Below are positions 1,282 through 26,859 of a stretch of DNA of 56,813 nucleotides, piece after piece; position 1 is the first letter of the stretch; each line of letters opens with the position of its first letter. Where the stretch lies: positions 62,001 through 118,813 of the forward strand of contig JBGAIN010000008.1 in assembly GCA_044225505.1 (NCBI GenBank). Direction: 5' to 3'. Origin of the DNA: Limisphaerales bacterium. GTDB taxonomy: Bacteria; Verrucomicrobiota; Verrucomicrobiia; Limisphaerales; SIBE01. The notes below the pieces were generated by a model that had not been told where the DNA came from, did no database searches, and worked only from the letters and a program-made list of their open reading frames with translations. Made by a program: the position numbers and the translations under genes.

Positions 1282-2487
1282 ATGGCTATTGCGATTTTCC
1301 TGGCTGGCCCGACCGGCCTCTATGCATTGGATGCCGAGGATCTGCTCGTATACCATAAAGGGCCTTTTACCGCTCGGCCTCAAATGTCGTTTTCGGAAGT
1401 TTACAACGACAACGTTTTTTACCAGGGCAGCGAGCAAGTTCGCGATTTCATTTCGATTCTGAGTCCAGGGATGGAATTTCAGTTGGGCAAACCGGAGCAC
1501 AATATGTTGCTCCTGACCTATGGACTAGATGAGCTGATCTATACCGAGAACCCAGACCTAAATGCCAGCCAGCACACCGTAAAACTCAAAAGCCAATTCG
1601 AAACCCAGCGATTGCGACTGGATGGCGAAGATCGTTTTCAGTTGCTTTCCAGTCCCTTGGGTGGGGTGGTTGAGCGAGTCGTGGGGCCGGACGGCGTGTT
1701 CACCCCAGTGCGACGGAATGTAGAACGCCTCACTTTTGACGACGGCTATACGCTTGCCTATGCCGCAGGAGAGAAAGCAACCATCTATCTTAGGGGATCT
1801 CACTATTCTACAGACTACCGCCAGACCATTGCCCTTTACGACATTGAGACGTTGACGGGCACAGGAGGGTTCGGTTATCGGGCCTTCCCTAAAACCGTGG
1901 TGTTTGGCGAAGTCTACTACAGTAGAACTACCACCGATCCGAACGATCCCCGCCTTGTCCTTAATCCCCGTTTAGACGCGATCGGCGGATATTTCGGGTT
2001 GCGTGGGAATTTTACCTCGAAACTCAGCGGTACGGCGAAGGTTGGATGGGAGCAAAGGGAATTTGCGGACGGGACCGGCGCCGACGGAAGTCCGGTTGTT
2101 GATCTTTCCCTGAGTCAGATGTTTTCGGAAAAGCAACTGCTCGCCCTGACTTACTCAAGGATGAGCACTGTTTCGGTGCAGTATAATCGTCAAACCTACA
2201 CGGCAGATTCCGTGGGCGTTCGGTTCACTCAGCTTCTCGGTGGCAGCCGGAAATGGCAAGTTGGCGTTGGGGCGACCTATTCTATGTATCAGTATGAGCG
2301 AACTCCACTGTCGACTGTGGCGACGGAGTATGATCTATTCCGAGGCTCGGTTAGCCTGGGTTACCAGGTCCAGCGTTGGCTATCAGCCGTTGTGGGATAC
2401 GATTTTGAGCGCGTCACCGGTAACTCTTCAGGAGTGATTGACTATACAGTCAACCGCGCTACTCTACGCTTGGCTATAGGGTATTAA
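1282..2487 (+). CDS. Outer-membrane beta-barrel protein of the polysaccharide export locus (start uncertain; frame open from 1090)
   Basis: Signal-like MAIAIFLAGPTGLYA; YNDNVF motif; alternating amphipathic strands; terminal aromatic residue (RLAIGY); directly upstream of the OPX and Wzc genes. Confidence 0.8.
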   Translation: MAIAIFLAGPTGLYALDAEDLLVYHKGPFTARPQMSFSEVYNDNVFYQGSEQVRDFISILSPGMEFQLGKPEHNMLLLTYGLDELIYTENPDLNASQHTVKLKSQFETQRLRLDGEDRFQLLSSPLGGVVERVVGPDGVFTPVRRNVERLTFDDGYTLAYAAGEKATIYLRGSHYSTDYRQTIALYDIETLTGTGGFGYRAFPKTVVFGEVYYSRTTTDPNDPRLVLNPRLDAIGGYFGLRGNFTSKLSGTAKVGWEQREFADGTGADGSPVVDLSLSQMFSEKQLLALTYSRMSTVSVQYNRQTYTADSVGVRFTQLLGGSRKWQVGVGATYSMYQYERTPLSTVATEYDLFRGSVSLGYQVQRWLSAVVGYDFERVTGNSSGVIDYTVNRATLRLAIGY

Positions 2488-10737: not shown

Positions 10738-12111
10738 TTACACGATCTCCAGTTCCTCGTTCTCTAAGAAGCCCTGCAATTGTCGAATTCGGGTCGGATG
10801 CCTCATTTTTCGTAGAGCTTTGGCCTCAATCTGGCGAATCCGTTCCCGGGTCACCTTGAACTGTTTGCCAACCTCCTCCAACGTCCTGGAGTATCCATCA
10901 CCAAGGCCAAAGCGCAGTTCCAGCACCTTGCGTTCACGCTCAGTCAAGCTCGTTAAGACATCTCCGAGTTTGTCTTTGAGCAAACTGTAGCTTGTCATGT
11001 CCGATGGATTCTCTGCGGACTTGTCTTCGATGAAGTCACCAAAGTTCGTATCCTCGCTGTCGCCGACAGGAGACTGGAGCGAAATCGGCTGCTGCGCCAT
11101 TTTCAAAACTGCTCGAACACGCTCGACGGGCATCTGCATTTCATCCGCGATTTCCTCCGGCGTCGCTTCCCGTCCGAAGTCCTGGACTAGCTGCTTTTGA
11201 ACCCGCATGAGCTTGTTGATCGTTTCGATCATGTGCACCGGTATACGAATGGTGCGGGCTTGATCGGCGATGGAACGAGTGATGGCCTGGCGGATCCACC
11301 ACGTGGCATAGGTGGAAAACTTATAGCCGCGACGGTATTCGAATTTCTCCACCGCTTTCATCAGTCCCATGTTGCCTTCCTGGATAAGGTCGAGGAAAGA
11401 AAGACCGCGGTTGGTGTACTTCTTGGCGATAGAAATTACCAAGCGCAGATTCGCTTCAACCATCTCGGTCTTTGCCTGAAGGGCTTTGCGCGTGAAATAC
11501 TGAAGCTGTTTATATGCGTCAAGGTACTGCTGGTAAGGCATGCGGACAAACTCCTCTAAGGCGCGGATCTTGCGTTCTTCAGACTGTATGACGACCTGTT
11601 GTTGAGGGGTTTTACGCTGATTTTCAAAATCCAGGATGCTGCGCAAGCTGACCTGGATCTTGTCGTGGATGTTGTCCGCAACCAGGGCCATTTCTTCAAT
11701 AACCTTCTGCTTGTAGTAAAACTTCGGGAAGGTTCGCTGCAACTTCTGATCAACCTTTTGGAAGTCGGCCGCCAACTTGTCACGCTTTCCTTTTTGTGGC
11801 GCGTTTTGCCAGTCGGCGTATTGATCGTCCACGGATTGATCTAAGGTGCGGACTTCCTTGACTAGTTTGCGAAGGGCCTTGAGGTGATTGTCACGGCCTT
11901 CAATCTTTTTGTCGAGTATGACGCGGTCAAACCGCTCTTTTGGAGGTTCTGAAATGAGTTTCTCAGCCAGCGCGATATGCTCTTTTCCCGAGAATCCAAA
12001 GCTGTAGATGATCCGTTTGACTTCGTTTTCTGCATCCTCGATGCGCTTGGAGATCTCCACTTCTTGCTCACGTGTCAACAATGGGACCTGGCCCATTTGT
12101 TTTAGATACAT
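10738..12111 (-). CDS. rpoD: RNA polymerase primary sigma factor RpoD, regions 1.2-4 (homology continues in this frame to about 12219)
   Basis: [78 protein letters not shown]. Confidence 0.95.
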
Positions 12112-12214
12112 CCTGACTGGATCGTCCAGAATATCGAGCCGAGATTTGTCTTCTTCTTCCTCTGGCTCAGGTTGCTTGACCCGATCAACCTCTGCTTGAT
12201 CGACAATCTCTACT

Positions 12215-12487
12215 TCAAGGGTTGCGCAGCTTGATATAGATCTCGTCCAGTTCCTCAGGAGTTACGACATTGTCAGGAAGTGCGTCGTTGATATCTCCGT
12301 AGGTGAGGTAACCCTGCTCTTGGGCAAGGCGGACAAGCTCCTTGATCTTTTCGGTCAAATCCAAGCCCGACTGGCTTTTGATCGTTTCAGGGTTGGAATG
12401 AAGGCCGTTTTTCGCCGCAGCATCATCCGCCGAGGGTGCGGGAGAGCCGGGTTTCGAATTCAGTTCAGAGGTAACAGACTTAGACAC
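12215..12487 (-). CDS. rpoD: RpoD region 1.1 segment, separated from the rest of rpoD by an apparent +1 frameshift
   Basis: [43 protein letters not shown] is sigma70 region 1.1; ends at AAC CCT TGA, while the +1 frame continues [13 protein letters not shown]...DDPVRMYL. Confidence 0.85.
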
Positions 12488-13008
12488 AAGAACACCAAAA
12501 TGATTTGCGGCGGGCTTGACGGCGGGTTGACTCAGTGCGCTGCTCCGAGGCCACCCGGCCCCCAAGAGGGGCCTTCTTTGTGCCAGCCTTAGCCACTGAC
12601 TTTTTGACCTTCGGTTTAGCCATAGGTGAGCGATGATCACTGCATTTTCAAAACAGGCAACAAAATAGCCGTCGAATATTGGGGAGCTTCAAAAACGAGT
12701 CAAGCTGCGAAAGGGCTTCAATTGAGTCCCTGACGCCTCGCCGAACATCTCTGATCCTCTCCAAAACCGAGTCACACTGAGGCTGCGACCATGGCTGAGT
12801 TAGCCCTGCTAAGCAGGGCCCCGGCGTCCGTCCTCGGCGGTAACCACCGCCACGAGCGGCGAGGAAAACCGCGAGCCTAGTGCTTCGCGAAGATTCTGTC
12901 ATTTGTTTCTGCTCGGACTTCCACTCTGACTTGGCCGTCACGGTGGCTAAGCAGTCCAAGCCAAAATCCGTTTCAGTTTCGAGACCGAAGAGGTGAGGCA
13001 TGATGAGC

Positions 13009-13026
13009 TTGTGAAAAAATTCACAA
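13009..13026. promoter_or_regulatory. Rex (NADH/NAD+ redox repressor)-type operator upstream of the nuo operon
   Basis: TTGTGAA-AAAA-TTCACAA, a perfect match to the TTGTGAA-N4-TTCACAA Rex consensus, about 70 bp before nuoB. Confidence 0.75.
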
Positions 13027-13093
13027 ATTCACTTGCCTGGGCGCTCATGCCATGTTTAGTTCTCGATGCTCAAGGCGTAACCATTTCGTAGCT

Positions 13094-13603
13094 ATGCAAG
13101 CCAATACCGAGATCGGCTACAACACTAAAATTGAGGGGGATGTTGTCGTCACCCGCCTCGATGCGGCGCTCAATTGGTGTAGGAAGAACTCGCTTTGGCC
13201 AATGCCAATGGGATTAGCTTGTTGTGCCATTGAACTGATGGCAACCGGCGCTAGTCGGTTCGACATTTCCAGGTTTGGTGCCGAAGTCATGCGATTTTCA
13301 CCTCGCCAGTCCGATTTAATGATCGTGGCTGGCACGGTTACTTACAAGATGGCGTTGGCTGTGCGCCGGATTTACGAACAGATGGCCGAGCCGAAATGGG
13401 TGATCGCCATGGGTGCCTGCGCTTCGACTGGAGGGATGTATCGAAGCTACTCCGTGCTTCAAGGAGTTGATCATATCATTCCAGTGGACGTCTATGTTGC
13501 GGGCTGCCCGCCCCGGCCTGAGGCTCTCCTCGATGCCTTGCTAAAGATGCAGAGCAAGGTTGCTCGCGAGCCGGTGGTTTCCACTCAGAAACAGGCCGCA
13601 TGA
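13094..13603 (+). CDS. nuoB: NADH-quinone oxidoreductase subunit B
   Basis: [39 protein letters not shown]. Confidence 0.96.
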
Positions 13604-13639
13604 GCCGCATCGTTTCTAAAACTCTTTGCTTTGATCTAG

Positions 13640-14314
13640 ATGTCTTCGCTCGACTTAGCAAATCAGCTGATCGGTCGATTCGGAGTCGCCCTGGCGGCGC
13701 CCGTCCAGTTTAGAGACGAGGTTACTCTCAAGCTGCTGGACCCATCGCGGATCGCTGAGGTTTGCGCGTTCGCCAAGCAAGAACTGGGTTTCAGTTTCTT
13801 GGTGGACTTGAGCGGTGTCGATCATTACGGCGACGATCCTCGTTTCACGGTCGTGTATGAACTTTACAACTTCGCTCAACGTTGCGCCCTTCGTCTGACC
13901 ACGGACGTCAGTGAAGAAACTCCTGAGGTTCCATCTGTAACTGGAATATGGCGGACTGCTGATTGGCATGAACGAGAAGTTTATGACATGCTAGGCATTC
14001 GGTTCCGAGGTCATCCTGACCTCCGTCGAATCCTGATGTGGGACGGATATCCGTACTTTCCGTTACGCAAGGATTTCCCCGTTGCTGGCAAGACAACGCA
14101 ACTCCCAGATATTGCTTTCACGGAACCGGCCCCATTGGAAGGGGGGCCTTTCGTGACGGTCGCTGGTGGCAAAGATACGATGGCACGGGAGCCGAGAGTG
14201 CGGATCCCTGACTCCGACGCTGTTGCCTTGAATGCACGTCTGGAGCGCCGACAAGATGGCAAACCAGCTCATGGAAATGTGCACGGTCCTGGGCCTGTGG
14301 AGCTTAAGAAATAA
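13640..14314 (+). CDS. nuoC: NADH-quinone oxidoreductase subunit C
   Basis: ADWHEREVYDMLGIRFRGHPDLRRILM...PLRKDFP. Confidence 0.95.
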   Translation: MSSLDLANQLIGRFGVALAAPVQFRDEVTLKLLDPSRIAEVCAFAKQELGFSFLVDLSGVDHYGDDPRFTVVYELYNFAQRCALRLTTDVSEETPEVPSVTGIWRTADWHEREVYDMLGIRFRGHPDLRRILMWDGYPYFPLRKDFPVAGKTTQLPDIAFTEPAPLEGGPFVTVAGGKDTMAREPRVRIPDSDAVALNARLERRQDGKPAHGNVHGPGPVELKK

Positions 14315-14319
14315 CGCTT

Positions 14320-15606
14320 ATGCCCACCGTGCAAGAAATCCAAGTTGTTGAACCTGCGGCGCGGTCTTTGGAGCGAGTTCCACCGGGCCAATTCCCTGAA
14401 CTGGGAGATCTTCCCGGTGAGAAGATGGTCTTGAACGTTGGGCCCTCCCATCCGTCGACCCACGGCGTGCTCCGAATCGTGCTGGAACTGGATGGAGAGA
14501 CGATCACCAAGGCCACACCGGATGTTGGTTATTTGCATCGAGGAGATGAGAAGATCGCCGAGAACATGACTTACAGTCAGTTCATCCCTTACACGGACCG
14601 GCTGGATTACATTGCTCCCTTGGCAAACAATGTGGCTTATGCACTGGCGGTTGAGAAGTTGATGGGAATTGACGGGCAATTGCCATTGCGCTGCCAATAT
14701 ATTCGCGTGATTTGTTGCGAACTGGCGCGAATCTCGTCCCACCTACTCGGGATTGGTTGCTTCGCGATGGACTGCGGCGCTATGACCGTGTTTCTCCATA
14801 CGTTTACGGAACGGGAGAAGATCTATAACCTTTGCGAGGCACTAACCGGCGCGCGATTTACCACGACCTACACGCGTATCGGCGGCTTGGCTCGAGACTT
14901 ACCGCCTGGCTGGGTGGACCAGTGTCGGAAATTTATCAACGAAGTAGTCGAAAACTTTGATGAGACCGATCGTCTCCTCACGCGGAATCGCATTTGGGTG
15001 GACCGCAATCAGGGCGTCGGAGTTATTCGCAAGGAAGACGCAATCGACTACGGCTTGACCGGGCCCAATCTGCGAGGCAGCGGGGTGGATTATGACATCC
15101 GGAAAGCTCGGCCGTACTTGGTTTATGACCGGCTACAGTTTGATGTTCCGTTAGGGTCTGTCGGCGATTGTTATGATCGCTATCTCGTCCGGCTCGAAGA
15201 GATGCGTCAGAGTGTACGCATCCTCCATCAATGCTTGGACCAGCTTCCAGGCGGAGCAGAGAATCTTGGAAAAGAGCCAATTAATGTCGCCGATCACAAA
15301 ATTGTCCTTCCACCCAAGGGCAAGGTTCTGACCAAGATGGAGGAGCTGATCCATCAGTTTATTCTGGTAACTCAGGGGATTAACGCGCCACCAGGGGAGG
15401 TTTATTTTGGAGCTGAGAATCCGAAAGGAGAACTAGGATTCTACATCCACAGCAAAGGGGGCGGAACACCGCACCGCCTTAAGATCCGCGCGCCTTCTTT
15501 TGTAAACTTGAGTATCCTTCCTCATTTGCTGCCTGGGCACATGATGAGCGACACCGTCGTAATTCTAGGCTCCCTGGATTTTGTTATGGGAGAATGTGAT
15601 CGCTAG
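14320..15606 (+). CDS. nuoD: NADH-quinone oxidoreductase subunit D
   Basis: NVGPSHPSTHGVLR, GYLHRGDEK, DRLDY, ENPKGELG, SLDFVMGECDR. Confidence 0.97.
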   Translation: MPTVQEIQVVEPAARSLERVPPGQFPELGDLPGEKMVLNVGPSHPSTHGVLRIVLELDGETITKATPDVGYLHRGDEKIAENMTYSQFIPYTDRLDYIAPLANNVAYALAVEKLMGIDGQLPLRCQYIRVICCELARISSHLLGIGCFAMDCGAMTVFLHTFTEREKIYNLCEALTGARFTTTYTRIGGLARDLPPGWVDQCRKFINEVVENFDETDRLLTRNRIWVDRNQGVGVIRKEDAIDYGLTGPNLRGSGVDYDIRKARPYLVYDRLQFDVPLGSVGDCYDRYLVRLEEMRQSVRILHQCLDQLPGGAENLGKEPINVADHKIVLPPKGKVLTKMEELIHQFILVTQGINAPPGEVYFGAENPKGELGFYIHSKGGGTPHRLKIRAPSFVNLSILPHLLPGHMMSDTVVILGSLDFVMGECDR

Positions 15607-15616
15607 TGCCTTTTCC

Positions 15617-16102
15617 ATGAGCTTTAGTATTCCTCAAGATCTCGAACGCAGTGTTGAAGAGTTAATTTCGCATTATCCTCAGAAACGCAGCGCCTCTTTG
15701 ATGGTGCTGCACGCACTTCAGGATCAGTTTGGGTTTTTATCCAAAGAGGCAATTGAATGGACGGCCACCAAGCTCGAACTCCAGCCGATTCATGTCTTAG
15801 AGTTGGTGACATTTTACCCGATGTTCCGGCAATCGCCGGTCGGGCGACATCACTTTAAAATCTGCAGAACTTTGAGCTGCGCGTTGGGAGGTTCCCATCA
15901 TTTGCACCAGCATCTTTGCGAGAAACTGGGGTTGGACCGGTCCGCCCATGGACCTCAGACGACGAAAGACGGTAAGTTCACGGTGGAATTTGTGGAATGT
16001 TTGGCGGGATGTGGGACAGCACCGGTAATGATGGTTAACGATGATTTTTACGAGAATGTTTCGAACGCGAAAGCGGACGAAATCCTCGGCAAATGCGGAT
16101 GA
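15617..16102 (+). CDS. nuoE: NADH-quinone oxidoreductase subunit E
   Basis: VTFYPMF, CRTLSC, ECLAGCGTAP 2Fe-2S ligands. Confidence 0.95.
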   Translation: MSFSIPQDLERSVEELISHYPQKRSASLMVLHALQDQFGFLSKEAIEWTATKLELQPIHVLELVTFYPMFRQSPVGRHHFKICRTLSCALGGSHHLHQHLCEKLGLDRSAHGPQTTKDGKFTVEFVECLAGCGTAPVMMVNDDFYENVSNAKADEILGKCG

Positions 16103-16113
16103 ATGCCAAGAAA

Positions 16114-16187
16114 TGGCTGCCGACCATGGATTTGAACCATGACAAACAGATCCAGAGTCTGCTGTGCTACCGTTACACCAGTCGGCA
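16114..16187 (-). tRNA. tRNA-Gln(CUG), antisense within the nuo operon
   Basis: Minus strand TGCCGAC TG GTGT AACGGTA GCAC A GCAGA CT-CTG-GA TCTGT TTGT CATGG TTCAAAT CCATG GTCGGCA G CCA: complete 74-nt cloverleaf, U1-A72 pair typical of bacterial tRNA-Gln, encoded CCA. Confidence 0.96.
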
Positions 16188-16198
16188 GTGCAGCCCGC

Positions 16199-16226
16199 AA
16201 TCTACAATTTCCTGGTCGAGAGTCAA
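16199..16226 (-). promoter_or_regulatory. Stable-RNA-type sigma70 promoter of tRNA-Gln
   Basis: TTGACT-N16-TAGATT followed by a GC-rich discriminator GCGGGC, 11 nt before the mature tRNA 5' end. Confidence 0.7.
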
Positions 16227-16243
16227 TCATGTAGGACCGTGAT

Positions 16244-17686
16244 ATGCCGCAAGAATATCGCTTGATTCTCCAAAACGCTGATCGTTCGGGCTACACTCCC
16301 GACATAGAATGCTATTTGCGCCATGGAGGCTACCAGGCCCTTAAGAAAGCGCTGACCCTTCCCGCTAAACCCCTTCCTGACGGGCGCTCTCTAAGTGGTC
16401 CCGAGCAAATACGGGAAGAGGTGAAACTTTCAGGCTTGCGCGGTCGCGGCGGGGCGGGATTTGCCTGTGGTCTAAAGTGGTCGTTTGTGGATCGCAAAAG
16501 TGGGAAGCCGATTTATCTAATCTGTAATGCGGATGAGTCAGAACCAGGTACTTTCAAAGACAGGCAGATCATCTATAAAGATCCGCATCAGTTGCTCGAA
16601 GGGATGATCATCTCCTGCTTCGCCAATGACGTGAAGCTCGCCTATATCTATATTCGCGGAGAGTTCACTGAGGGCGCCAAGATTCTCAATCAAGCGCTTG
16701 CCGAAGCCCGGGTTAGAGGTTTCCTGGGAAAGAACATTGCAGGTGCCGGGTATGATTTGGAGATTCATGTCCATCGAGGTGCCGGTGCGTACATTTGTGG
16801 TGAAGAAACCGGCCTCATTGAGTCCCTGGAAGGCAAGCGCCCTTACCCTCGGATCAAGCCGCCCTATTTTCCGGCGATTCTCGGACTCTACATGTGTCCG
16901 ACGATTGTCAACAATGTGGAGACGCTTTGTGCAGTGAAACATATCGTTGGCGCGGGTGCTGCGGAGTATGCCAAGCTCGGGACGCCAAACAACACCGGTA
17001 CCAGAATCGTGAGTTTGAGCGGCCAGGTCCGGCGCCCAGGCTACTATGAAGTTGAGGTCGGGAAGGTGACCATTCGCGAGCTGATTTACGACCCCGCGTT
17101 TGGCGGTGGATTACGCGAAGGTCGTCAGCTCAAAGCTCTGATTCCCGGAGGATCGTCGGCCAAGGTATTCAAGGCTGGCGAGCGATTTAAACTGAAGAAG
17201 AAAGGTCCAGATGGGAAGGATCTCGAGCAAGAAGTTGACATGCTGGATTTGCCTTACGATTTTGATTCTTTGATTGCCGCGGGAAGCATGTCCGGGTCTG
17301 GTGCCATCATTGTGATGGATGATTCCGTCGATGTCGTGGAAGCGCTGGCGAATCTGTCGGAGTTTTACGCGCACGAAAGTTGTGGACAGTGTACTCCGTG
17401 CCGCGAGGGCTCGCTCTGGATGTCCAAAGCTCTCCAACGCCTAACGCATGGCGAAGGACGTAAACAAGATGCCGAATACCTGGTTCGGATCGCGGACAAT
17501 ATTCCAGGTGGTCGTACTATCTGTGCATTTGGCGAGGCTTGCTCATGGCCAGTGCAGAGCTTTGTCGGAAAATTCAAAGACGAGTTCGTGGCTCGGGGCG
17601 CACGAGACGAAGAGCATCAAAACGTGGCTGCACGGGCGGCCACGGACAGCAGAATGGCCCACCCTCCTGTTCCAAGCGCGCGTTAA
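16244..17686 (+). CDS. nuoF: NADH-quinone oxidoreductase subunit F
   Basis: GLRGRGGAGF, NADESEPGTFKDR, GAGAYICGEETGLIESLEG, ESCGQCTPCREG. Confidence 0.97.
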   Translation: MPQEYRLILQNADRSGYTPDIECYLRHGGYQALKKALTLPAKPLPDGRSLSGPEQIREEVKLSGLRGRGGAGFACGLKWSFVDRKSGKPIYLICNADESEPGTFKDRQIIYKDPHQLLEGMIISCFANDVKLAYIYIRGEFTEGAKILNQALAEARVRGFLGKNIAGAGYDLEIHVHRGAGAYICGEETGLIESLEGKRPYPRIKPPYFPAILGLYMCPTIVNNVETLCAVKHIVGAGAAEYAKLGTPNNTGTRIVSLSGQVRRPGYYEVEVGKVTIRELIYDPAFGGGLREGRQLKALIPGGSSAKVFKAGERFKLKKKGPDGKDLEQEVDMLDLPYDFDSLIAAGSMSGSGAIIVMDDSVDVVEALANLSEFYAHESCGQCTPCREGSLWMSKALQRLTHGEGRKQDAEYLVRIADNIPGGRTICAFGEACSWPVQSFVGKFKDEFVARGARDEEHQNVAARAATDSRMAHPPVPSAR

Positions 17687-17690
17687 TGTC

Positions 17691-19391
17691 ATGGCTGCTC
17701 CTACACCAGAGACAAAATCAGCTCCCCCCGCCGTGGATCTTGTTCGAGTAAAGGTCGACGGTGTGGCCGTTGAGATTCCCAAGCTCACCCCGGACTGGAG
17801 CGGAAAGCTTGTGCCGACGACCATGATCCAGGCATGCACGGCGGCCAAGATCGATGTGCCTCATTATTGTTACCACCCGAAACTGCCGGTGGCGGGCAAT
17901 TGCCGGATGTGTCTCGTCGAGTTCGGTACTCCGGCACTAGGTCCAGATCGAAAGCCCGTTCTGAACGCCGATGGTACGCCTAAAGTTGCGAAGTCGCCCC
18001 GTCCGGCCATCGCTTGCGCGACGCCCATATCGCCAGGCATGGAAATCTATACGACGACACCAGCGGTGAAGCAGATGCGCGAAGGCGTGTTGGAGTTCCT
18101 CCTTATTAACCATCCTTTAGATTGTCCAATTTGCGATCAGGCAGGTGAGTGCAAGCTCCAGGAGTATTCGGTTCAATATGGGCAGGCGGAGAGTCGTTTT
18201 GTGGAGGCAAAAGTGCACAAGCCGAAACGCGTGGATCTCGGGCCTCGAATCGTGCTCGACGACGAGCGCTGCATTCTGTGCACCCGTTGCATTCGTTTCA
18301 CGCGCGACATTGCTGGCGACGATGCGCTTGGGATCATTAACCGGGGGAGCTACAACACCCTGACCACGTATCCGGGGCGGAAGTTTGACAACAACTATAC
18401 GTTGAACACCGTTGATATCTGCCCGGTAGGAGCCCTGACTTCCAAAGATTTTCGATTCCAAATGCGGGTCTGGTTCTTGAAAGAGACCAAGAGTGTTTGC
18501 ACGAGCTGTGCGACGGGATGCAATGTGGTCATTGGTTCGCGCGAAAGTGCAATTTACCGTTACGAGCCCCGTGAAAATGAGGCGGTAAACAGCTGTTGGA
18601 TGTGCGATTACGGGCGTCTCAACTACAAGTGGATCAATCGTCCGGATCGTTTGACGACGGTAATCAGTTCCAGCACCAAGAATACCGGGCAGGGGAGTAA
18701 TTGGTGGACCGTCACCAAGGAAATCGGTGACCTTCTCAAGGTCGCCACGCCGGGCTCGGTCGCAGTCGTTGCTTCCGCGCGCCAAACAAACGAAGAGCTT
18801 TATCTCCTCCAAGTTTTGGCCAAAAGACTCGGTGCGCTTACGGATTCCGTTCCGCGACACGGGGAGGGAGATAAAATACTGTTAAGCACCGATCGCAACC
18901 CAAACGCGACGGGCGCCCGGTTGATCGGGGTGGCGGCGAATCCTATGGGTTCGGTGTTGCCCAAGATCGCAGAAGGGATAAGGGCTGGAACGATCAAAAC
19001 GTTAATCGTGTTTGGCGAGGACGTGACACGACACGGAATTGGAGTTGAGTTGCTAGGCCGGTTACAGACTTTGATTGTAAGCGATATCCTGCCTAATGCG
19101 ACGACCGCAGCTGCGCGTTACCTGCTTCCGGGTTGCGCTCATGCGGAAAAGCGTGGGTCCTTCACTAACGGGAAGGGCCGAGTACAAAAGTTTCTGAAGG
19201 CGATCGAACCTCCTGGAGAGGCGCGGCCGGAGTGGGAGTTTTTGCACGAATTGCTATTTAAGGTTTCGGATCAGAACGGCGTGGCTTCGATCGAAGGGTT
19301 GTTTAATCGCATGGCACAAGAAGTCCGAGCGTTCAAAGGACTAACTTGGGCTGGGCTAGGGGAAACAGGCACGAGCGTGCCTCTGGCGTGA
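17691..19391 (+). CDS. nuoG: NADH-quinone oxidoreductase subunit G (short, 566 aa)
   Basis: PHYCYHPKL...GNCRMC, HPLDCPICDQAGECKLQ, RCILCTRCIRF, CPVGAL, CTSCATGC. Confidence 0.93.
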   Translation: MAAPTPETKSAPPAVDLVRVKVDGVAVEIPKLTPDWSGKLVPTTMIQACTAAKIDVPHYCYHPKLPVAGNCRMCLVEFGTPALGPDRKPVLNADGTPKVAKSPRPAIACATPISPGMEIYTTTPAVKQMREGVLEFLLINHPLDCPICDQAGECKLQEYSVQYGQAESRFVEAKVHKPKRVDLGPRIVLDDERCILCTRCIRFTRDIAGDDALGIINRGSYNTLTTYPGRKFDNNYTLNTVDICPVGALTSKDFRFQMRVWFLKETKSVCTSCATGCNVVIGSRESAIYRYEPRENEAVNSCWMCDYGRLNYKWINRPDRLTTVISSSTKNTGQGSNWWTVTKEIGDLLKVATPGSVAVVASARQTNEELYLLQVLAKRLGALTDSVPRHGEGDKILLSTDRNPNATGARLIGVAANPMGSVLPKIAEGIRAGTIKTLIVFGEDVTRHGIGVELLGRLQTLIVSDILPNATTAAARYLLPGCAHAEKRGSFTNGKGRVQKFLKAIEPPGEARPEWEFLHELLFKVSDQNGVASIEGLFNRMAQEVRAFKGLTWAGLGETGTSVPLA

Positions 19392-19457
19392 GTTGTATGT
19401 GCATTTACAGTCAAACCTCCGAGGCGCTCGCCAGATTTGGCAAGGAACTTCCACGAC

Positions 19458-20513
19458 ATGACCTGGCTTAATCACTTTAGTAGTGCTCAGCAGTTTCTGC
19501 TTTTCAGCGCGGTCAAGATTCTTGGCGTCTTCGCGGTCATGATGACGATCGTCGCATATTCCGTTTACGTGGAACGTCGCGTGGCGGCGTTAATTCAAGA
19601 TCGCTTAGGTCCAAATCGAGTTGGGCCGTTTGGATTGCTTCAGCCCTTAGCCGACGCGGTCAAAGCCTTTCTCAAAGAGGACTTCACTCCGGCTTACGTT
19701 CGAAAAGGATACTATTGGCTGGCTCCCGCCGTGGTCATGATTCCGAGTTTGCTGACAATCGCGGTCATCCCCTTTGGATCGACCCTAGGCGGCCAAAAGA
19801 TGGTTATTGCCGATTTGAATGTGGGAATCTTATACACCTTTGGCATTGTGTCCTTGGGGGTTTACGGAATTGTCCTGGCCGGTTACGCAGCGAATTCGAA
19901 GTACCCATTCTTGGGCGGTATTCGATCGAGTGCGCAGCTGATTTCGTATGAAATCGCCATGGGAATGTCTGTAATTCCGGTTTTCTTGCTCGTGGGAAGC
20001 CTCAATCTCAGCCAAGTGATTTCGTATCAGGCTCACGGCTTGTTCAGTTGGTTGATCTTTAAACAACCGCTCGCGTTTGTCATTTTTGTCGGCGCCGCCT
20101 TTGCTGAGACTAACCGACTCCCGTTTGACCTGCCGGAATCCGAACAAGAGTTGGCTGGGGGGTACAACGTGGAGTACAGCTCAATGAAATTCGCCCTCTT
20201 TTTCATGGGAGAGTATGCCAATATGACAGCGGCTTCGGCCATGATGGTGACCCTCTTTCTCGGAGGTTGGACGTTGCCGATCTTCGGTCTAGATCAGCCG
20301 GCCACAAGCGTCGCGATGGGACTGGCGCAAATCGGTGTGTTTCTTGGGAAGATGTTGGCGATTCTCTTTGTCATCATTTGGATACGGTGGATGCTGCCTC
20401 GGTTTCGCTACGACCAACTGATGAACCTGGGTTGGCGGCGGTTTATCCCGCTAGCATTGGCAAATATTGTCCTTACAGCCACTTGGCTCTGGCTACGGCC
20501 TATTTCCGCATGA
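19458..20513 (+). CDS. nuoH: NADH-quinone oxidoreductase subunit H
   Basis: ERRVAALIQDRLGPNRVGPFGLLQPLADAVK, ETNRLPFDLPESEQEL, PRFRYDQLM. Confidence 0.96.
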   Translation: MTWLNHFSSAQQFLLFSAVKILGVFAVMMTIVAYSVYVERRVAALIQDRLGPNRVGPFGLLQPLADAVKAFLKEDFTPAYVRKGYYWLAPAVVMIPSLLTIAVIPFGSTLGGQKMVIADLNVGILYTFGIVSLGVYGIVLAGYAANSKYPFLGGIRSSAQLISYEIAMGMSVIPVFLLVGSLNLSQVISYQAHGLFSWLIFKQPLAFVIFVGAAFAETNRLPFDLPESEQELAGGYNVEYSSMKFALFFMGEYANMTAASAMMVTLFLGGWTLPIFGLDQPATSVAMGLAQIGVFLGKMLAILFVIIWIRWMLPRFRYDQLMNLGWRRFIPLALANIVLTATWLWLRPISA

Positions 20514-21043
20514 TTGTTGAACGCAAAGCCCTGAGCTTCTGGGAGCGCCTTTATCTGCCGGCACTAATCGGCGGGTTTAGAGTCACGTTGCGCCACTTCT
20601 TCAAAAAGAAGGTGACGATGCAATATCCAGAAGAGCGTTGGGTCGTTCCCGAAGGTTACCGAGGCGCGCCTTACCTCGTGCGCGACCAGAAGAACCGAAC
20701 AAAATGTGTCTCGTGTCAGCTCTGCGAGTTTGTTTGTCCACCGAAAGCGATTCGCATCACCCCGCCCGGCCCAGAAGGGGCTCCGGAAGCGGGCAACGTG
20801 GAGAAGGCGCCGAAAGAATTTGAGATCAACATGCTGCGGTGCATTTTCTGCGGCTATTGCCAGGAGGTCTGCCCGGAAGAAGCGATTTTCCTGATGAAAG
20901 ACTATTCCCTCACCGGGACCAACCGGGCAGAGATGATTTACAACAAAGAGAAACTGCTGGCGTTAGGGGGTGTGCATCAGGATACAATTCGCAAGTGGCA
21001 ACGGAAAGCCGACGAAGCGAAAGCGCAGGGCGTTTCCCCATAA
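20510..21043 (+). CDS. nuoI: NADH-quinone oxidoreductase subunit I
   Basis: TMQYPEE; two 4Fe-4S motifs CVSCQLCEFVCP and CIFCGYCQEVCP; ATGA overlap with nuoH. Confidence 0.96.
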   Translation: MIVERKALSFWERLYLPALIGGFRVTLRHFFKKKVTMQYPEERWVVPEGYRGAPYLVRDQKNRTKCVSCQLCEFVCPPKAIRITPPGPEGAPEAGNVEKAPKEFEINMLRCIFCGYCQEVCPEEAIFLMKDYSLTGTNRAEMIYNKEKLLALGGVHQDTIRKWQRKADEAKAQGVSP

Positions 21044-21113
21044 GTCAGGATCGTTCGTGCAGCGGCCGTTCGGAGCGAATCTCTAGAGCAGCCGTCGCAA
21101 CGTTTGAAGGTCA

Positions 21114-21614
21114 ATGCAGGACTTATTTTTCTACTTGTTTGCAGCTGCAACCTTGATTTGCGGCGTGCTCGTGGTGGCCAATCCGTTCAGTCGGAATCCG
21201 GTCACCAGCGCGATGTTTTTGGTCCTGACGATCGTTTCCATGGCGGGGTTGTTTGTGTTGTTGCACGCCTTCTTTCTGGCGGCTGTGCAGGTTCTGGTCT
21301 ACGCCGGCGCGGTGATGGTGTTGTTCCTTTTCGTCATTATGCTGCTGGATCTCAAAGAAGAAGAACAGCGAAAGATCAAGCGAGTGGGAGCTTTCTTGGG
21401 CGTCGTCACTGTCGCTGTGATTTACGCGATCTTTCTGCAAGCTTTTGGCAGAGCACCGGTCCATGCCGCGCCCGTCGCGGAGCTTGAGGGATCGACGGCG
21501 AATTTAGGCCGCGCACTCTTTACGGAGTACCTGCTTCCGTTTGAAATCATTTCCATTTTGCTGTTGGTCGCAATGGTGGGCGTCATTCTTTTGAGCAAAA
21601 AGGAATCCAAGTGA
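21114..21614 (+). CDS. nuoJ: NADH-quinone oxidoreductase subunit J
   Basis: QVLVYAGAVMVLFLFVIMLL, YLLPFEIISILLLVAMVG. Confidence 0.95.
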   Translation: MQDLFFYLFAAATLICGVLVVANPFSRNPVTSAMFLVLTIVSMAGLFVLLHAFFLAAVQVLVYAGAVMVLFLFVIMLLDLKEEEQRKIKRVGAFLGVVTVAVIYAIFLQAFGRAPVHAAPVAELEGSTANLGRALFTEYLLPFEIISILLLVAMVGVILLSKKESK

Positions 21615-21916
21615 ACGTTGGGCTGGGTCAATACCTCGTTGTTAGTGCGCTTCTTTTCAGTTTGGGGCTGCTTGGCGTGGTGATGCGGCGTAATTTGTTG
21701 GTCATTTACATGTCTCTGGAGCTCATGCTCAACGCGGCTAATCTGGCGCTAGTCGCCATGTCTCGTTTTAACAATAACCTCAACGGCCAGGTTATGGTCT
21801 TCTTCGTCATTACGGTCGCGGCGGCGGAAGTCTCGGTAGGACTTGCCCTGATTGTGGCGCTCTATCGCAAGCGTCAGGCAGCGCATGTCGAAGACCTCAC
21901 GACCATGAAGCTCTGA
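21611..21916 (+). CDS. nuoK: NADH-quinone oxidoreductase subunit K
   Basis: RRNLLVIYMSLELMLNAANL, VAAAEVSVGLAL. Confidence 0.95.
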   Translation: MNVGLGQYLVVSALLFSLGLLGVVMRRNLLVIYMSLELMLNAANLALVAMSRFNNNLNGQVMVFFVITVAAAEVSVGLALIVALYRKRQAAHVEDLTTMKL

Positions 21917-21921
21917 CACCT

Positions 21922-23796
21922 ATGCCCGCTGCTGTTGCTAACTTGGCTTGGCTTGTTCTATTTCTGCCGCTGCTAGCGGCAGTGGGAATCACGCTCTTTA
22001 CCCTGCGCGACCCGCGGCGCAGTGCCGGACTTTCGATCGCTGCTGTTTTGGCGGCCTTCGTTTGCAGTCTCGCGCTCTTTCGGTTTCAGCCGCTGGACGG
22101 GCCAGCTACTGAGGTTGCCGTGGACTGGTTGTCCGTTGGAGCATTGCATGTTCCGTTCGGGATCCGGCTGGATGCCCTCAGCTTGATGATGCTGTTGATT
22201 GTCACGGGTGTCGGAAGCGTTATTCACATCTACTCTTACGGTTATATGCAGGGTGACCGGAGTTTTGCCCGCTTTTTCGCCAGCCTTAGTCTTTTCACGT
22301 TCTCGATGCTCGGAATCGTGCTCTCGAACAACCTGCTGGAAATGTTCATTTTCTGGGAACTGGTCGGCATGTCGAGTTACCTGCTGATCGGATTCTGGCA
22401 CGAGCGGCCCGCGGCGGCCGATGCTGCCAAGAAAGCTTTTCTGACCAATCGATTGGGAGACTTCGGGTTTCTCCTGGGCATTATCTTGGTTTGGGCAACC
22501 TTGGGTTCATTGAGTTTTGCCGAACTGACTGGCAAGCTCCAGGCGACGCCCGGCGCCCTTGGTTCCCTGGCGACAGTGGCAGGCCTTTTGATCTTTTGCG
22601 GTGCCGTGGGAAAATCAGCCCAATTTCCGCTCCATGTTTGGCTCCCGGACGCCATGGAAGGTCCGACACCCGTGAGCGCGTTGATTCACGCTGCCACCAT
22701 GGTGGCGGCGGGAGTCTACATGCTCTGCCGAACCTTCTTCCTGTTCAATACCCCGGCGTTGGAAGTTATCGCGTGGATTGGCGGGATTACCGCGTTGCTC
22801 GCGGCGGTAATCGCCGTGCAGCAAAACGACATCAAACGCATTCTCGCTTATTCCACGCTTTCGCAATTAGGCTATATGGTGATGGCTGTAGGTCTGGCAG
22901 GTCCGGGAGTTGCCATGTATCACCTCACGACTCACGCATTTTTCAAGGCGCTGTTATTCTTGGCAGCGGGCTCGGTGATTCATGGGCTTCACCACGAACA
23001 GAATATTTGGAAGATGGGCGGGCTTCACTCGAAGATGCCTGTGACCTTTTGGACTTTCTTGACTGGCACTCTGGCTCTGGCGGGGGTTCCGCCATTCAGC
23101 GGGTTCTACAGCAAAGACGATGTTTTGGCGGCTGCTTACCATCACACCATGCCACTGTTTGTCCTCGGCGCGGTAGTGGCTGTGTTGACCACGTTCTACA
23201 TGTTGCGACTGCTGGCGGTGGCGTTTCTAGGTGCGCCTCGATCGGCTGCAGCGGAACATGCCCATGAGTCTCCCGGGGTAATGACCGGGCCGCTGCTGCT
23301 CTTGGCTGTGCCATCAGTCTTCGCCGGTCTTTGGAATATCGCTCCGATATACGCGCGCCAGTTTGGAGGAGGCGCGGGCGCTGAGAACGTCGGATTATTC
23401 CAACGGTTGGTCGCTCCGTTTCATCATGCGCCGTTTGTTGCGCTCGTCGGCATCGGAGCCGTGATCATGGGTGCTGTCTTGGCGTGGAGCCTCTACGGGA
23501 ATGCCAAACAAGATCCTCTGCCGCAACGCCTGGGAGCATTGGCCAGCGCGATGCGGGATCGCTTTTACTTCGACGAACTTTACGAGCGCTTGATCGCCGC
23601 AACGCAGGAATCTCTCGCCACGCTCGCCGCGGCGGTGGATCGATGGATCATCGCTGGGTTGCTTGTGCGCGGTGTTCATGGCAGCACGGAATTCATCGGG
23701 CGCACCCTGCGCCTGGTTCAGACCGGTAATTTGCAGACGTATGCCTTTTTATTTGCGGCAGGCGTGGCGCTTCTGCTGCTCTTTATGCTGCGGTAA
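21922..23796 (+). CDS. nuoL: NADH-quinone oxidoreductase subunit L
   Basis: GKSAQFPLHVWLPDAMEGPTPVSALIHAATMV, DIKRILAYSTLSQLGYM. Confidence 0.96.
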   Translation: MPAAVANLAWLVLFLPLLAAVGITLFTLRDPRRSAGLSIAAVLAAFVCSLALFRFQPLDGPATEVAVDWLSVGALHVPFGIRLDALSLMMLLIVTGVGSVIHIYSYGYMQGDRSFARFFASLSLFTFSMLGIVLSNNLLEMFIFWELVGMSSYLLIGFWHERPAAADAAKKAFLTNRLGDFGFLLGIILVWATLGSLSFAELTGKLQATPGALGSLATVAGLLIFCGAVGKSAQFPLHVWLPDAMEGPTPVSALIHAATMVAAGVYMLCRTFFLFNTPALEVIAWIGGITALLAAVIAVQQNDIKRILAYSTLSQLGYMVMAVGLAGPGVAMYHLTTHAFFKALLFLAAGSVIHGLHHEQNIWKMGGLHSKMPVTFWTFLTGTLALAGVPPFSGFYSKDDVLAAAYHHTMPLFVLGAVVAVLTTFYMLRLLAVAFLGAPRSAAAEHAHESPGVMTGPLLLLAVPSVFAGLWNIAPIYARQFGGGAGAENVGLFQRLVAPFHHAPFVALVGIGAVIMGAVLAWSLYGNAKQDPLPQRLGALASAMRDRFYFDELYERLIAATQESLATLAAAVDRWIIAGLLVRGVHGSTEFIGRTLRLVQTGNLQTYAFLFAAGVALLLLFMLR

Positions 23797-23799
23797 CCA

Positions 23800-25335
23800 A
23801 TGTCTACGCTTACCTTCATTCTGTTGATTCCGTTGCTGGCCGCCGTCATGACGGCCTTGATACCGCGTAATTACCAATTTGGCATCCGCGTGGTGGCGAT
23901 CCTGGCCACTTTTGTATCAATGCTGCTGGCGATCAAGGCGTTCGTGTTTTTTCCTTCAGGCGGGACGGGATATTATTATGTGCAACGGTTCAGTTGGGTG
24001 GAGTCGTTAGGGATAAGCTATCATGTCGGAGCAGACGGTCTTAACATCGGCTTGATTCTCATGGGGGCGGTCGTGGCCTTTGCCGCTACGTGTGCTTCCT
24101 GGGACATCCAGGAGCGGCAGAAGGAGTTCTATATCCTGCTTTTGGTCATGGCCGGCGGCATTCTGGGTGCGTTCGCTTCGTTGGATCTCTTTTTCTTCTT
24201 CTTTTTCCACGAACTAGCCCTCATTCCCACTTTCATTATGATCGGCGTTTGGGGGCGCGGACGCGATAAGAACTACGCGGCTTTCCAAATGACGCTGTAT
24301 CTCACTTTGGGCGCGCTCTTCGCGCTGGTAGGCTTGGTAGCCCTTTACTTGCAAGCGGGAGGTCGGACGTTCGACATGGTGGACCTGACGCAGCAACTGG
24401 CCACGACTCCGCTTTCGGCTCAAGCGCAACATAGGATCTTTCCATTTCTGTTGTTCGGTTTCGGCATCCTTGTTTCCCTGTGGCCGTTTCACACTTGGGC
24501 GCCTCTGGGATACGGATCTGCGCCAACGGCCACGGCCATGTTGCATGCCGGCGTTCTGAAGAAGTTTGGACTTTACGGTCTAATTCGAGTGGCGTTGCCG
24601 TTATTGCCGGAGGCGGCGCGTTCCTGGATGCCACTGCTCACGTGGCTTTGTTTAGGAAACATCCTTTACGTGGGTTTAGTAGCATTAAGGCAAAAGAACT
24701 TAAATCTGCTCATCGGCAACTCGAGTGTGGCGCATATGGGCTTTGCGTTCCTCGGTATCGCCAGCCTGAGCCTTGTCGGCATCACAGGAACGGTCGTGGT
24801 GATGGTGGCTCACGGTTTCCTGGCGGCGCTGACGTTTGCTATCAGCGGGTATTTGTATCAGCACACCGGCACGCTCGAAATGAACGAGATGGGCGGGTTG
24901 CTGCGCCGATTGCCATTCATTGGGACAGCGCTTGTTATGGCCGCGCTCGCGGGCTGCGGCTTGCCCGGGTTCGCTAACTTCGTCGGCGAAGTGATGGTTT
25001 TTTTCGCGGCCTGGGAAACGGCGCGTTGGGTCACGGTGTTAGCCATTTGGGGCGGGTTGTTGATTGGCGCCGTCTATATGCTGCGGGCCGTTCGTGCCAT
25101 TTTGCATGGAGAACTAGCCGACCGTTGGGCGTCGCTTGACGACGCGAGCTCTGTTTGGCGCCGTTTGCCGTTCGCGCTTTTGCTAACCGGTTTGCTCCTG
25201 TTTGGGTTCGTGCCGAGGCTCTTGACGGACAAGATCAAGCCGGTAGCGCAACAGATCGTTGTGGCCACTGGGGGTGAGAAAAGCGCATTGCCAGACATCA
25301 AGACCGTTCAGGTGAACCGTCCCGGAGTTCAATGA
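23800..25335 (+). CDS. nuoM: NADH-quinone oxidoreductase subunit M
   Basis: Multi-TM; DLFFFFFFHELALIP, PFHTWAP, SSVAHMG, GLPGFANFVGE; lies between nuoL and nuoN. Confidence 0.94.
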   Translation: MSTLTFILLIPLLAAVMTALIPRNYQFGIRVVAILATFVSMLLAIKAFVFFPSGGTGYYYVQRFSWVESLGISYHVGADGLNIGLILMGAVVAFAATCASWDIQERQKEFYILLLVMAGGILGAFASLDLFFFFFFHELALIPTFIMIGVWGRGRDKNYAAFQMTLYLTLGALFALVGLVALYLQAGGRTFDMVDLTQQLATTPLSAQAQHRIFPFLLFGFGILVSLWPFHTWAPLGYGSAPTATAMLHAGVLKKFGLYGLIRVALPLLPEAARSWMPLLTWLCLGNILYVGLVALRQKNLNLLIGNSSVAHMGFAFLGIASLSLVGITGTVVVMVAHGFLAALTFAISGYLYQHTGTLEMNEMGGLLRRLPFIGTALVMAALAGCGLPGFANFVGEVMVFFAAWETARWVTVLAIWGGLLIGAVYMLRAVRAILHGELADRWASLDDASSVWRRLPFALLLTGLLLFGFVPRLLTDKIKPVAQQIVVATGGEKSALPDIKTVQVNRPGVQ

Positions 25336-25362
25336 CCCCTTTGATTCCACGGCTTAGATGAC

Positions 25363-26859
25363 ATGAACATTTCCGTCACCATCTTGGAAATTGCCGTAGT
25401 TCTTCTTGCACTTGGGGTGCTATTGGCTGACCTGTGGCTTCCACCCAGTTCCCGGAAGCTGCTTGGATACGGAGCGGCTTTCGGTCTTGGACTGATTTTG
25501 ATCAGCAGCTTTCTTCTGCAAGGGGACCCAGTCCGATTTGCTTTCGGGCATTTGTACGTGTTGGACAACCTTTCCCTGTTCTTCAAGCGATTCTTCCTTT
25601 TGGCCGCCATCTTGGTCGTGATCATGACGGTCGAGTTTGCGGATCGGATACACTCAGGGCTTTCGGAGTACTTTGCGCTGACGCTTTTTGCTCTTACCGG
25701 CATGATGTTCGCCGCGTCCGCGAACGACTTCATGATGGTGTTCGCGTCACTTGAGTTGATCACCGTCACATTCTATGTGTTGACCAGTTTCCAACGTTCC
25801 AAGCTTGTCTCGCTCGAGGCGGGAGTGAAGTATCTGATTTTGGGGGCCCTTTCGACCGCTTTTACGGTCTATGGCATTGCTTTAATCTTTGGGACTGCCA
25901 ACTCCACGAGTTTCGAAAAGATATTCGCAAGCAACGGTTCATTTGCCGGAGACCCATTATTCCTTCTGGGATTGCTCCTCGTGCTAGTGGGGCTTGGCTT
26001 CAAGATTGCCGCGTTTCCATTCCAAATCTGGGCTCCGGACGTTTATCAGGGAGCTCCCGTCCCAACGACGTCGTTTCTCGCGGTTGGATCGAAAGCGGCC
26101 GGATTTGTGTTGCTCTTGAGGATCCTTTTCGGGGCAGTGCCGCAAGTGACGTACGGCTGGACGAAGCTTCTCATGCTGATCTCGGCCGTGACGTTGCTCT
26201 ATGGCAATCTTTGTGCAATTCCTCAGCGCAACCTCAAGCGGCTGTTGGGCTACTCGAGCATTGCGCACGCTGGATATCTGTTGCTTGGCGTCACGGCGAT
26301 GAGCCTCGCTGGGTCATCGGCCGTGCTTTACTATCTGACGGGTTATCTGTTCACCGTGTTGGCGGCATTCACCGTCATTTGCATTGTGATGCGAGAAGTG
26401 GATGGAGAAGATATTTCCGCTATCGCGGGGCTGCACCAACGTTCCCCTTTACTTGCGGCGAGTCTAGCGCTGGCCATGATTTCGCTGGCGGGCATCCCTC
26501 CGCTCGCTGGCTTTTTCGGGAAATTCCTGCTGATTCGTGCGCTGCTGGAGCGGGGTGCGCTTGAGCCCGTTTACTACTGGCTCATCGCGATCGCAATTGT
26601 CGGCGTGGTCATTTCCTTCTACTACTATTTGGGAGTCGTCCGCGCCATCTATTGGGCGGAAGGCAGTCCGTCGCTCACTGGACTGACGCTTTCCCGACCG
26701 ACGCGTGTGAGTCTTTACGTCTGCCTGGCCGGAATGCTTTACCTTGGATTGTATCCAAATCCGATCGTTGCGGCTTCGAATCGCGCGGTTAGCTCTCTCA
26801 ACTTTGCACCTGGGCCGTCGGCGGCGGCGCAACATGCCAGCGTCGAGCCCGGAAAGTAG
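25363..26859 (+). CDS. nuoN: NADH-quinone oxidoreductase subunit N
   Basis: EAGVKYLILGA, FKIAAFPFQIWAPDVYQGAP, KRLLGYSSIAHAGY, SLAGIPPLAGFFGK. Confidence 0.95.
   Translation: MNISVTILEIAVVLLALGVLLADLWLPPSSRKLLGYGAAFGLGLILISSFLLQGDPVRFAFGHLYVLDNLSLFFKRFFLLAAILVVIMTVEFADRIHSGLSEYFALTLFALTGMMFAASANDFMMVFASLELITVTFYVLTSFQRSKLVSLEAGVKYLILGALSTAFTVYGIALIFGTANSTSFEKIFASNGSFAGDPLFLLGLLLVLVGLGFKIAAFPFQIWAPDVYQGAPVPTTSFLAVGSKAAGFVLLLRILFGAVPQVTYGWTKLLMLISAVTLLYGNLCAIPQRNLKRLLGYSSIAHAGYLLLGVTAMSLAGSSAVLYYLTGYLFTVLAAFTVICIVMREVDGEDISAIAGLHQRSPLLAASLALAMISLAGIPPLAGFFGKFLLIRALLERGALEPVYYWLIAIAIVGVVISFYYYLGVVRAIYWAEGSPSLTGLTLSRPTRVSLYVCLAGMLYLGLYPNPIVAASNRAVSSLNFAPGPSAAAQHASVEPGK

Follow-up and report, generated by a model that had tools for sequence, protein, structure and literature searches.

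Noncontiguous operons, of which the original example is reportedly menE-menC from a 2019 study, are among the described systems to which the locus analyzed here comes closest. The atlas of such operons in Staphylococcus aureus (Iturbe et al. 2024, PMC11034616) presents the class as one that is unpredictable without transcriptomes, and the word "tRNA" never occurs in that paper. Our locus lies in a 56,813-nt stretch of a Limisphaerales bacterium (assembly GCA_044225505.1, contig JBGAIN010000008.1, positions 62,001 to 118,813; hereafter the window). As far as the accessible description of the S. aureus cases goes, it resembles them in that an opposite-strand gene is flanked by co-directional genes of one pathway, with the potential for overlapping, mutually repressing transcripts; it differs in that the embedded gene is a tRNA rather than a protein gene, in that co-transcription across the embedded gene is here a possibility, and in that relatives show the two halves to be able to function apart. 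Two further systems bear comparison. Rhodobacter-type nuo operons carry urf genes, such as urf1 between nuoE and nuoF (PMC13066640, in the portion available), which indicates that the nuoE-nuoF junction tolerates foreign genes in another phylum too; however, urf1 as described there is a co-directional protein gene, whereas here the interposed unit is an antisense RNA gene with a promoter of its own. In mouse Polr3e a conserved MIR, transcribed by Pol III and nested antisense, acts by transcriptional interference, according to the accessible part of the report (PMC5358760). This is likewise a small and highly transcribed RNA unit lying antisense inside a protein-coding transcription unit, but the system so described is eukaryotic and intronic and involves two polymerases, and the analogy is one of mechanism only. 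Literature searches recovered no report of a tRNA in or between nuo genes, or in noncontiguous operons, and a search on complex I of Limisphaerales and Pedosphaerales likewise returned no mention of the layout.

The tRNA-Gln(CUG) gene within the nuo cluster

The genes for NuoB, C, D, E, F, G, H, J, K, L, M and N, as recognized by NCBIfam profiles, all lie on the plus strand of the window (Table 1). An initial annotation made from the letters alone had placed a minus-strand tRNA-Gln(CUG) in the nuoE-nuoF gap, and both ARAGORN, which reports the anticodon CTG, and Rfam (RF00005, gathering score 29, E 5.6e-11, model positions 1-71 of 71) recover this gene. The tight spacing that it described also holds: the gap between the nuoE stop codon (TGA, 16100-16102) and the nuoF ATG measures 141 nt, with 11 nt from the stop to the tRNA 3' end and 56 nt from the tRNA to the nuoF start. 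The gene encodes its CCA (16116-16114), and the acceptor reads UGCCGAC...GUCGGCA-G-CCA. Both U1-A72 and G73, which in E. coli are identity elements for GlnRS and may have that role here, are present in this tRNA. ARAGORN predicts 46 tRNA genes, almost all of them single, in the whole assembly (9.04 Mb in 342 contigs, 95% complete), including one Gln-CTG and, on another contig, one Gln-TTG; the 123 glutamine codons in the 12 nuo genes counted comprise 64 CAG and 59 CAA. The canonical fold, the status as sole CUG isoacceptor gene and the CAG usage thus point to a working housekeeping tRNA gene, and it is retained in 93 distinct loci of relatives.

Table 1. Features of the nuo cluster and of the embedded tRNA unit, with positions in the window
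Feature	Position	Strand	Basis
nuoB, nuoC, nuoD (complex I Q-module)	13052..15606	+	NCBIfam matches; nuoA absent upstream
nuoE	15581..16102	+	TIGR01958, 150.7 bits
tRNA 3' trailer, identical with the nuoE-tRNA spacer, 11 nt	16103..16113	-	sequence
tRNA-Gln(CUG), encoded CCA, U1-A72, G73	16114..16187	-	ARAGORN; Rfam 59.6 bits
Discriminator plus a short 5' leader, reading GCGGGCTGCAC in the tRNA orientation	16188..16198	-	sequence
-10 hexamer TAGATT	16199..16204	-	consensus scan; conservation
-35 hexamer TTGACT, 17 nt from the nuoF ATG	16221..16226	-	consensus scan; conservation
nuoF	16244..17686	+	NF010120, 459.5 bits against a cut-off of 389
nuoG, nuoH, nuoI (putative), nuoJ, K, L, M, N	17691..26859	+	NCBIfam for all but nuoI

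The longest nuoE ORF begins at a TTG (15581), and the ATG at 15617, past the nuoD stop, is the likelier start; for nuoG a comparison of in-frame start candidates favors the ATG at 17691. Shine-Dalgarno sequences are missing before most nuo genes here, so that the absence of one before nuoF is uninformative. No nuoA was found upstream of nuoB (window 12641-13051). The three nuoA homologues of the genome are all on other contigs, one of them solitary (C195) and two (C141 and C8) at the head of separate complex I-like clusters in which no nuoE, nuoF or nuoG matches were found. With nuoA elsewhere, the nuo cluster of the window is already incomplete in its own genome. Further complex I-related clusters lie on contigs C261, C225, C217, C186 and C244. 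The minus-strand rpoD of the window (10738-12640) is split into two ORFs in different frames: one of 457 aa (10738-12111) covers most of the RpoD profile of NCBIfam, whereas in the other, of 141 aa (12215-12640), the RpoD profiles are matched in their N-terminal region alone. The split could stem from a frameshift, from a fault in the assembly or from a wrongly set start.

Conservation of the layout in Limisphaerales and beyond

The records of relatives that were obtained by NuoF similarity carry the labels Verrucomicrobiia, Limisphaerales or Pedosphaera sp., some of which are plainly wrong. A first set, from a DNA search, covered 40 relatives from 29 families of the order. A complete antisense tRNA lies between nuoE and nuoF in 23 of these and a partial one at a contig end in 3; 9 more are consistent by match coordinates only, and in 3 the contig ends upstream of nuoF, permitting no call. 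One of the remaining two (G021) is a clear loss, in which nuoE is followed by about 75 AT-rich nt and then nuoF, with both the tRNA and TTGACT absent; the other (G030) gave no nuoE/F match. In a second set of 80 loci, three chromosome-level records among them, ARAGORN recovers the tRNA in 72, and L055 adds one in which it lies 400 nt upstream; two records begin inside the tRNA and one at its promoter, all at contig starts, and four are uncallable. In a class-level sample all 21 genomes of the order fit the layout, 20 by match coordinates alone and one from fetched sequence. The synteny across Verrucomicrobiota that the initial annotation had proposed to look for is thus found in nearly all Limisphaerales genomes examined, and its concern that the arrangement might be unique to one assembly does not apply, as the layout is order-wide. 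Judged from these comparisons, nuoE-tRNA(-)-nuoF is an old fixture of the order Limisphaerales.

When 401 genomes of the phylum were screened for a pattern representing the tight tRNA-nuoF layout, 10 matched, and only the match in the window's genome is the locus; with just two other members of the order in the sample, the screen is of little weight. Two tRNA-Gln-like matches (G253, G249) were rejected because nuo genes are absent nearby, and in the other seven the tRNA-Gln(CUG) sequence was not found in the matched stretch. The contigs of several relatives (L013, L023, L028 = L070, L072, L058) stop inside or at the tRNA; such breaks are likely to arise because co-occurring relatives share the tRNA core, at which the assembly graph branches.

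The relatives' loci with a tRNA that were collected number 96, of which 93 are distinct, and in these the tRNA-nuoF pair is almost never parted, while spacing on the nuoE side is loose. Between the tRNA and nuoF, 63 of the 93 have a spacer of 40-65 nt, 19 one of 66-120 nt and 11 one of 121-400 nt. The nuoE-tRNA gap ranges from 0-15 nt (25/93) through 16-150 nt (38/93) and 151-400 nt (10/93) to 401-1000 nt (14/93), and nuoE is missing within about 1.4 kb in 6/93. The larger of these gaps contain plus-strand ORFs, of 63 aa in 16 loci and about 197 aa in 11, and with a PIN domain in 2. The 63-aa and ~197-aa ORFs form a conserved cassette, seen for instance in L014 (stored 887-1480, minus strand), L012, L026, L029, L047, L077 and L085, in which they partly overlap in two frames between nuoE and the tRNA 3' end. 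The ~197-aa ORF has a weak match, below the Pfam cut-off, to the DUF2204 nucleotidyltransferases, and no homologues of the cassette ORFs were found in the window's genome. Among other occupants are an ORF with a weak integrase match, again under the Pfam cut-off, that abuts the tRNA 3' end (L057), and a DNA methylase gene upstream of the tRNA (L106). When 17 inserted or neighboring ORFs were searched against Pfam, 9 had no family at E 0.01 or better. One Limisphaerales genome (G025) has nuoD-nuoE on a separate contig, and there the gene ahead of tRNA-nuoF is of the GH5 family. It is well established that tRNA genes serve as integration sites of genomic islands. The relatives' loci recall such sites in that insertions pile up 3' of the tRNA-Gln and one includes an integrase-like ORF, whereas the window itself has no island and a nuoE-tRNA gap of only 11 nt.

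Smaller elements also occur on both sides of the gene. In many lineages 8-9-nt tandem repeats (GATTTACGA-like on the tRNA strand) fill a gap of about 46 nt past the tRNA 3' end, between nuoE and the tRNA (L019, L026, L029, L048, L062, L064, L068, L076, L079 and others); in L029 like units are also present before nuoF. In L016, where the tRNA-nuoF spacer is 197 nt, the part between nuoF and the tRNA promoter contains an ORF of 38 codons with the appearance of a putative single transmembrane helix.

Beyond Limisphaerales, families f43, f55 and f68 are represented by four genomes, in which nuoD-nuoE-nuoF is contiguous and lacks a tRNA; in two of them the run continues into nuoG. Family f44, from another order, has a tRNA-Gln(CUG) antisense 64-71 nt upstream of nuoF in 3/3 genomes, with TTGACG as the -35. 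In both f44 genomes in which it was traced (G043, G064) nuoE is on a contig of its own, apart from that of nuoF. Two of the three (G064, G074) have an M48 peptidase gene following the tRNA on the tRNA strand, so that nuoF there is out of reach of transcription from an upstream plus-strand gene. In a tree of 24 NuoF sequences, which is a single-gene and not a species tree, Limisphaerales forms one clade (100/100), and f44 groups with f55 and f68 (94/89), families without a tRNA at the site. The tRNA-nuoF pairs of f44 and Limisphaerales may therefore be of shared origin or convergent, as this tree fits either. All three f44 loci (L121, L032, L122) also have a CRP-like palindrome, TGTGA-N6-TCACA, about 30 nt beyond the tRNA 3' end, kept in 3/3 genomes whatever gene adjoins; nearby in L032 there are ORFs that by eye resemble cNMP-binding proteins and are putatively such.

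Promoter, terminators and transcripts

The promoter that had been proposed for the tRNA, TTGACT-N16-TAGATT at 16226..16199 on the minus strand, is recovered by a consensus scan. The scan returned 3 promoter-like sites in 6 kb, and shuffled sequence would be expected to give 3.7; as the count is no higher than in the shuffles, the match by itself means nothing. A comparison of the 93 distinct loci showed that: 1) All 93 have TTGAC, at a distance of 37-47 nt before the tRNA 5' end. 2) The -35 is TTGACT in 91 and the preceding base is C in 90. 3) The two hexamers are 16 nt apart in 91 and 17 nt apart in 2. 4) The -10 has the form TAnnnT, with T1 in 90, and A2 and T6 each in 93. 5) The end of the -10 lies 9-19 nt from the mature tRNA 5' end, most commonly 16 nt. 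On the strength of this conservation the tRNA promoter is real, and the claim that the gene has its own promoter is borne out. From the spacing, transcription would start about 7 nt past the -10, giving a leader of about 4-5 nt. In the same genome, sites of the form TTGACx-N16/17-TAnnnT also precede many other tRNA genes, among them those for Asp, His, Asn, Gly-TCC, Glu-CTC and Pro-GGG, and hence this is the ordinary tRNA promoter of the organism.

The rRNA and tRNA promoters of E. coli have a 16-bp spacer and a GC-rich discriminator and are under ppGpp/DksA control. The initial annotation had recognized this combination here and suggested that the stringent response might be linked to nuoF-N expression. 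The spacer half of its description stands (91/93), but the strongly GC-rich discriminator GCGGGC is confined to the window's genus, and the 7 nt past the -10 have a mean GC of 0.67 across the 93 loci. The promoters are thus like those of E. coli in the 16-nt spacer, the near-consensus -35 and the weak -10, and within the window's genus in the GC-rich stretch past the -10; they are unlike them in that no ppGpp synthetase domain was detected in the window's genome and the DksA-like match is sub-threshold (48.7 bits against a cut-off of 115.5), so that the E. coli control mechanism is not transferable. The RelA_SpoT synthetase domain (PF04607) was not found in the window's genome (assembly 95% complete) and just 5 of the 61 order genomes searched have it, whereas a control search was positive in 11 of 14 well-known genomes. 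According to Atkinson et al. 2011 (PMC3153485), Rel occurs in every major group of bacteria other than Chlamydiae, Verrucomicrobia and Planctomycetes, and long RSH proteins are absent from these same three. The absence here, the rarity in the order and the published absence together make a ppGpp mechanism, and with it the suggested stringent link to nuoF-N, unlikely; growth-rate control by other means is possible.

No terminator-like site was found on either strand of the 141-nt gap. A looser scan of the 93 loci, which asked for a hairpin at least as stable as -8 kcal/mol with a T-rich stretch behind it and was run without a shuffle control, gave minus-strand matches past the tRNA in 21 loci and tRNA-nuoF matches in 3; of the 57 loci in which the nuoE-tRNA gap is about 30 nt or more, 11 had a plus-strand match in that gap. 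None is conserved across the 93 on either strand. The lack of visible terminators noted at the outset is accordingly confirmed for this gap, and by default one would expect transcripts to read through in both directions in the window's genome. In 24 loci a search for a plus-strand sigma-70 promoter, over the interval that begins 60 nt ahead of the tRNA 3' end and extends to the nuoF ATG, returned scattered weak matches with no consistent position, and hence an independent nuoF promoter is presumed rather than seen.

Four metatranscriptome runs, available as assembled unstranded contigs and holding 5-9% of the sampled words, yielded exact pieces of the nuo cluster at low depth. One contig (X17 record 14, 162 nt, depth 6.4, unstranded) matches 16019-16180 with no differences, taking in 84 nt from nuoE, all 11 nt of the gap and 67 nt from the tRNA. 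As mature tRNA cannot yield it, some molecule spans the nuoE-tRNA junction, and the contig fits overlapping transcription; the rpoD-nuoB intergenic region is covered too, so that DNA in the RNA libraries is possible. None of the contigs crosses the tRNA 5' end and the nuoF start, an absence that carries no weight. A candidate special processing structure at the anti-tRNA is unsupported, because the fold of the plus-strand RNA there (-20.2 kcal/mol, z = -1.1 against shuffles) is not unusually stable.

Readings of the arrangement

We consider it on balance probable that a housekeeping tRNA gene has become fixed between separable halves of the nuo cluster, and that the overlap in transcription is a tolerated by-product. 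The single tRNA-Gln(CUG) gene would be transcribed leftwards from its own sigma-70-type promoter (cTTGACT, 16 nt, TAnnnT); it would have been fixed long ago in a short nuoE-nuoF gap and have stayed there through the radiation of Limisphaerales. The nuo cluster is divisible at the tRNA, with nuoF-N keeping its tRNA neighbor even when nuoB-E sits elsewhere or inserts lie 3' of the tRNA, and expression of nuoF-N would be independent of the nuoB-E promoter. Some read-through from nuoB-E across the tRNA and some run-on from the tRNA into nuoE are likely and would be tolerated; we infer the tRNA start site, the read-through and the neutrality alike. The placement of nuoB-E on other contigs in G025 and f44, together with the repeated inserts 3' of the tRNA, indicates that nuoF-N can be expressed without nuoB-E, which argues against an obligatory single operon. 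The initial annotation had named an independent start of nuoF as an outcome that would speak against its own view; independent expression is indicated indirectly, by relatives only (G025, f44), and the nuoF promoter itself was not seen. The regulatory coupling of the tRNA to nuoF-N that it proposed is left unsupported, with nuoF-N of relatives lying apart from nuoB-E and the ppGpp link failing.

A rather unlikely alternative is that the locus is a noncontiguous operon, in which one nuoB-N transcript runs antisense through the tRNA and meets, head-on, transcription from the tRNA promoter. Repression would then be mutual, through colliding polymerases, an occluded promoter or the cutting of double-stranded RNA. 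Such an operon would set the ratio of nuoB-E to nuoF-N or tie it to the activity of the tRNA promoter. The architecture, an opposite-strand gene between co-directional genes of one function, fits the definition given in the available part of PMC11034616, and the very short gaps on the two sides (0-15 nt in 25/93 and 40-65 nt in 63/93), the lack of a terminator in the 141-nt gap or conserved in the 93 loci, and the failure to see a plus-strand promoter before nuoF all favor a continuous transcript. So does the exact RNA-library contig that bridges the nuoE end and the tRNA body, but it is unstranded, with a depth of 6.4, and could derive from library DNA, as the coverage of the rpoD-nuoB intergenic region suggests. 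Against this reading, nuoF-N is kept with the tRNA even where nuoB-E is on another contig (G025; f44) or where 0.6 to >1.4 kb has been inserted after nuoE, so that co-transcription with nuoB-E is not required. Moreover, unequal dosage of the subunits of one complex offers no obvious gain, and the ppGpp link fails. Colliding polymerases, cutting by RNase III and a processing site may each exist at the nuoE-nuoF junction.

The tight 40-65-nt spacer and the rarely parted pair could reflect selection for tRNA-nuoF adjacency instead of neutrality, and conservation over one order and a family of another exceeds that of many neutral gene orders, which counts against the neutral component of our favored reading. 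It is possible, though we regard it as doubtful, that the spacer is a divergent control region, in which the tRNA promoter overlaps an unrecognised nuoF promoter and polymerase binding or supercoiling couples the two; selection on this coupling would then hold the tRNA and nuoF together. The pair outlasts every rearrangement seen, including those of G064 and G074, and in the tight loci the nuoF ATG lies just 8-20 nt past the -35. Bacterial promoters are often bidirectional by virtue of -10 symmetry, according to the accessible portions of bioRxiv 10.1101/2020.01.31.928960 and PMC12825309, and in the window a plus-strand TACAAT (16203-16208) shares its TA with the tRNA -10. However, this TACAAT is not conserved, the needed A 4 nt before the tRNA -10 being present in just 13 of 93 loci, and no consistent plus-strand -35/-10 is found in 24 loci. 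Closeness is also not obligatory, since the spacer reaches 121-400 nt in 11/93, often with repeat-like inserts, and the shortness of the spacer may by itself account for the rarity of breaks there.

Equally improbable in our estimation is a stronger version, in which selection keeps the tRNA beside nuoF because its strong promoter acts as a growth-linked valve or insulator that blocks or trims transcription from nuoB-E and sets an overlapping divergent start for nuoF-N. If this were true, the amount of the complex I half encoded by nuoF-N would track the activity of the tRNA promoter without ppGpp; and if the f44 layout arose separately, the device would have evolved convergently.

Even if neutral, the layout is a clean marker of Limisphaerales. 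There is also a practical warning in it, as metagenome contigs often break in the tRNA and pipelines may annotate nuoB-N as one operon. The locus further offers a simple natural test bed for convergent transcription of an mRNA and a stable RNA. Should the tRNA unit affect nuo, it would be the first case found of a tRNA as the opposite-strand member of an operon-like cluster, and this in a phylum without the classical stringent response.
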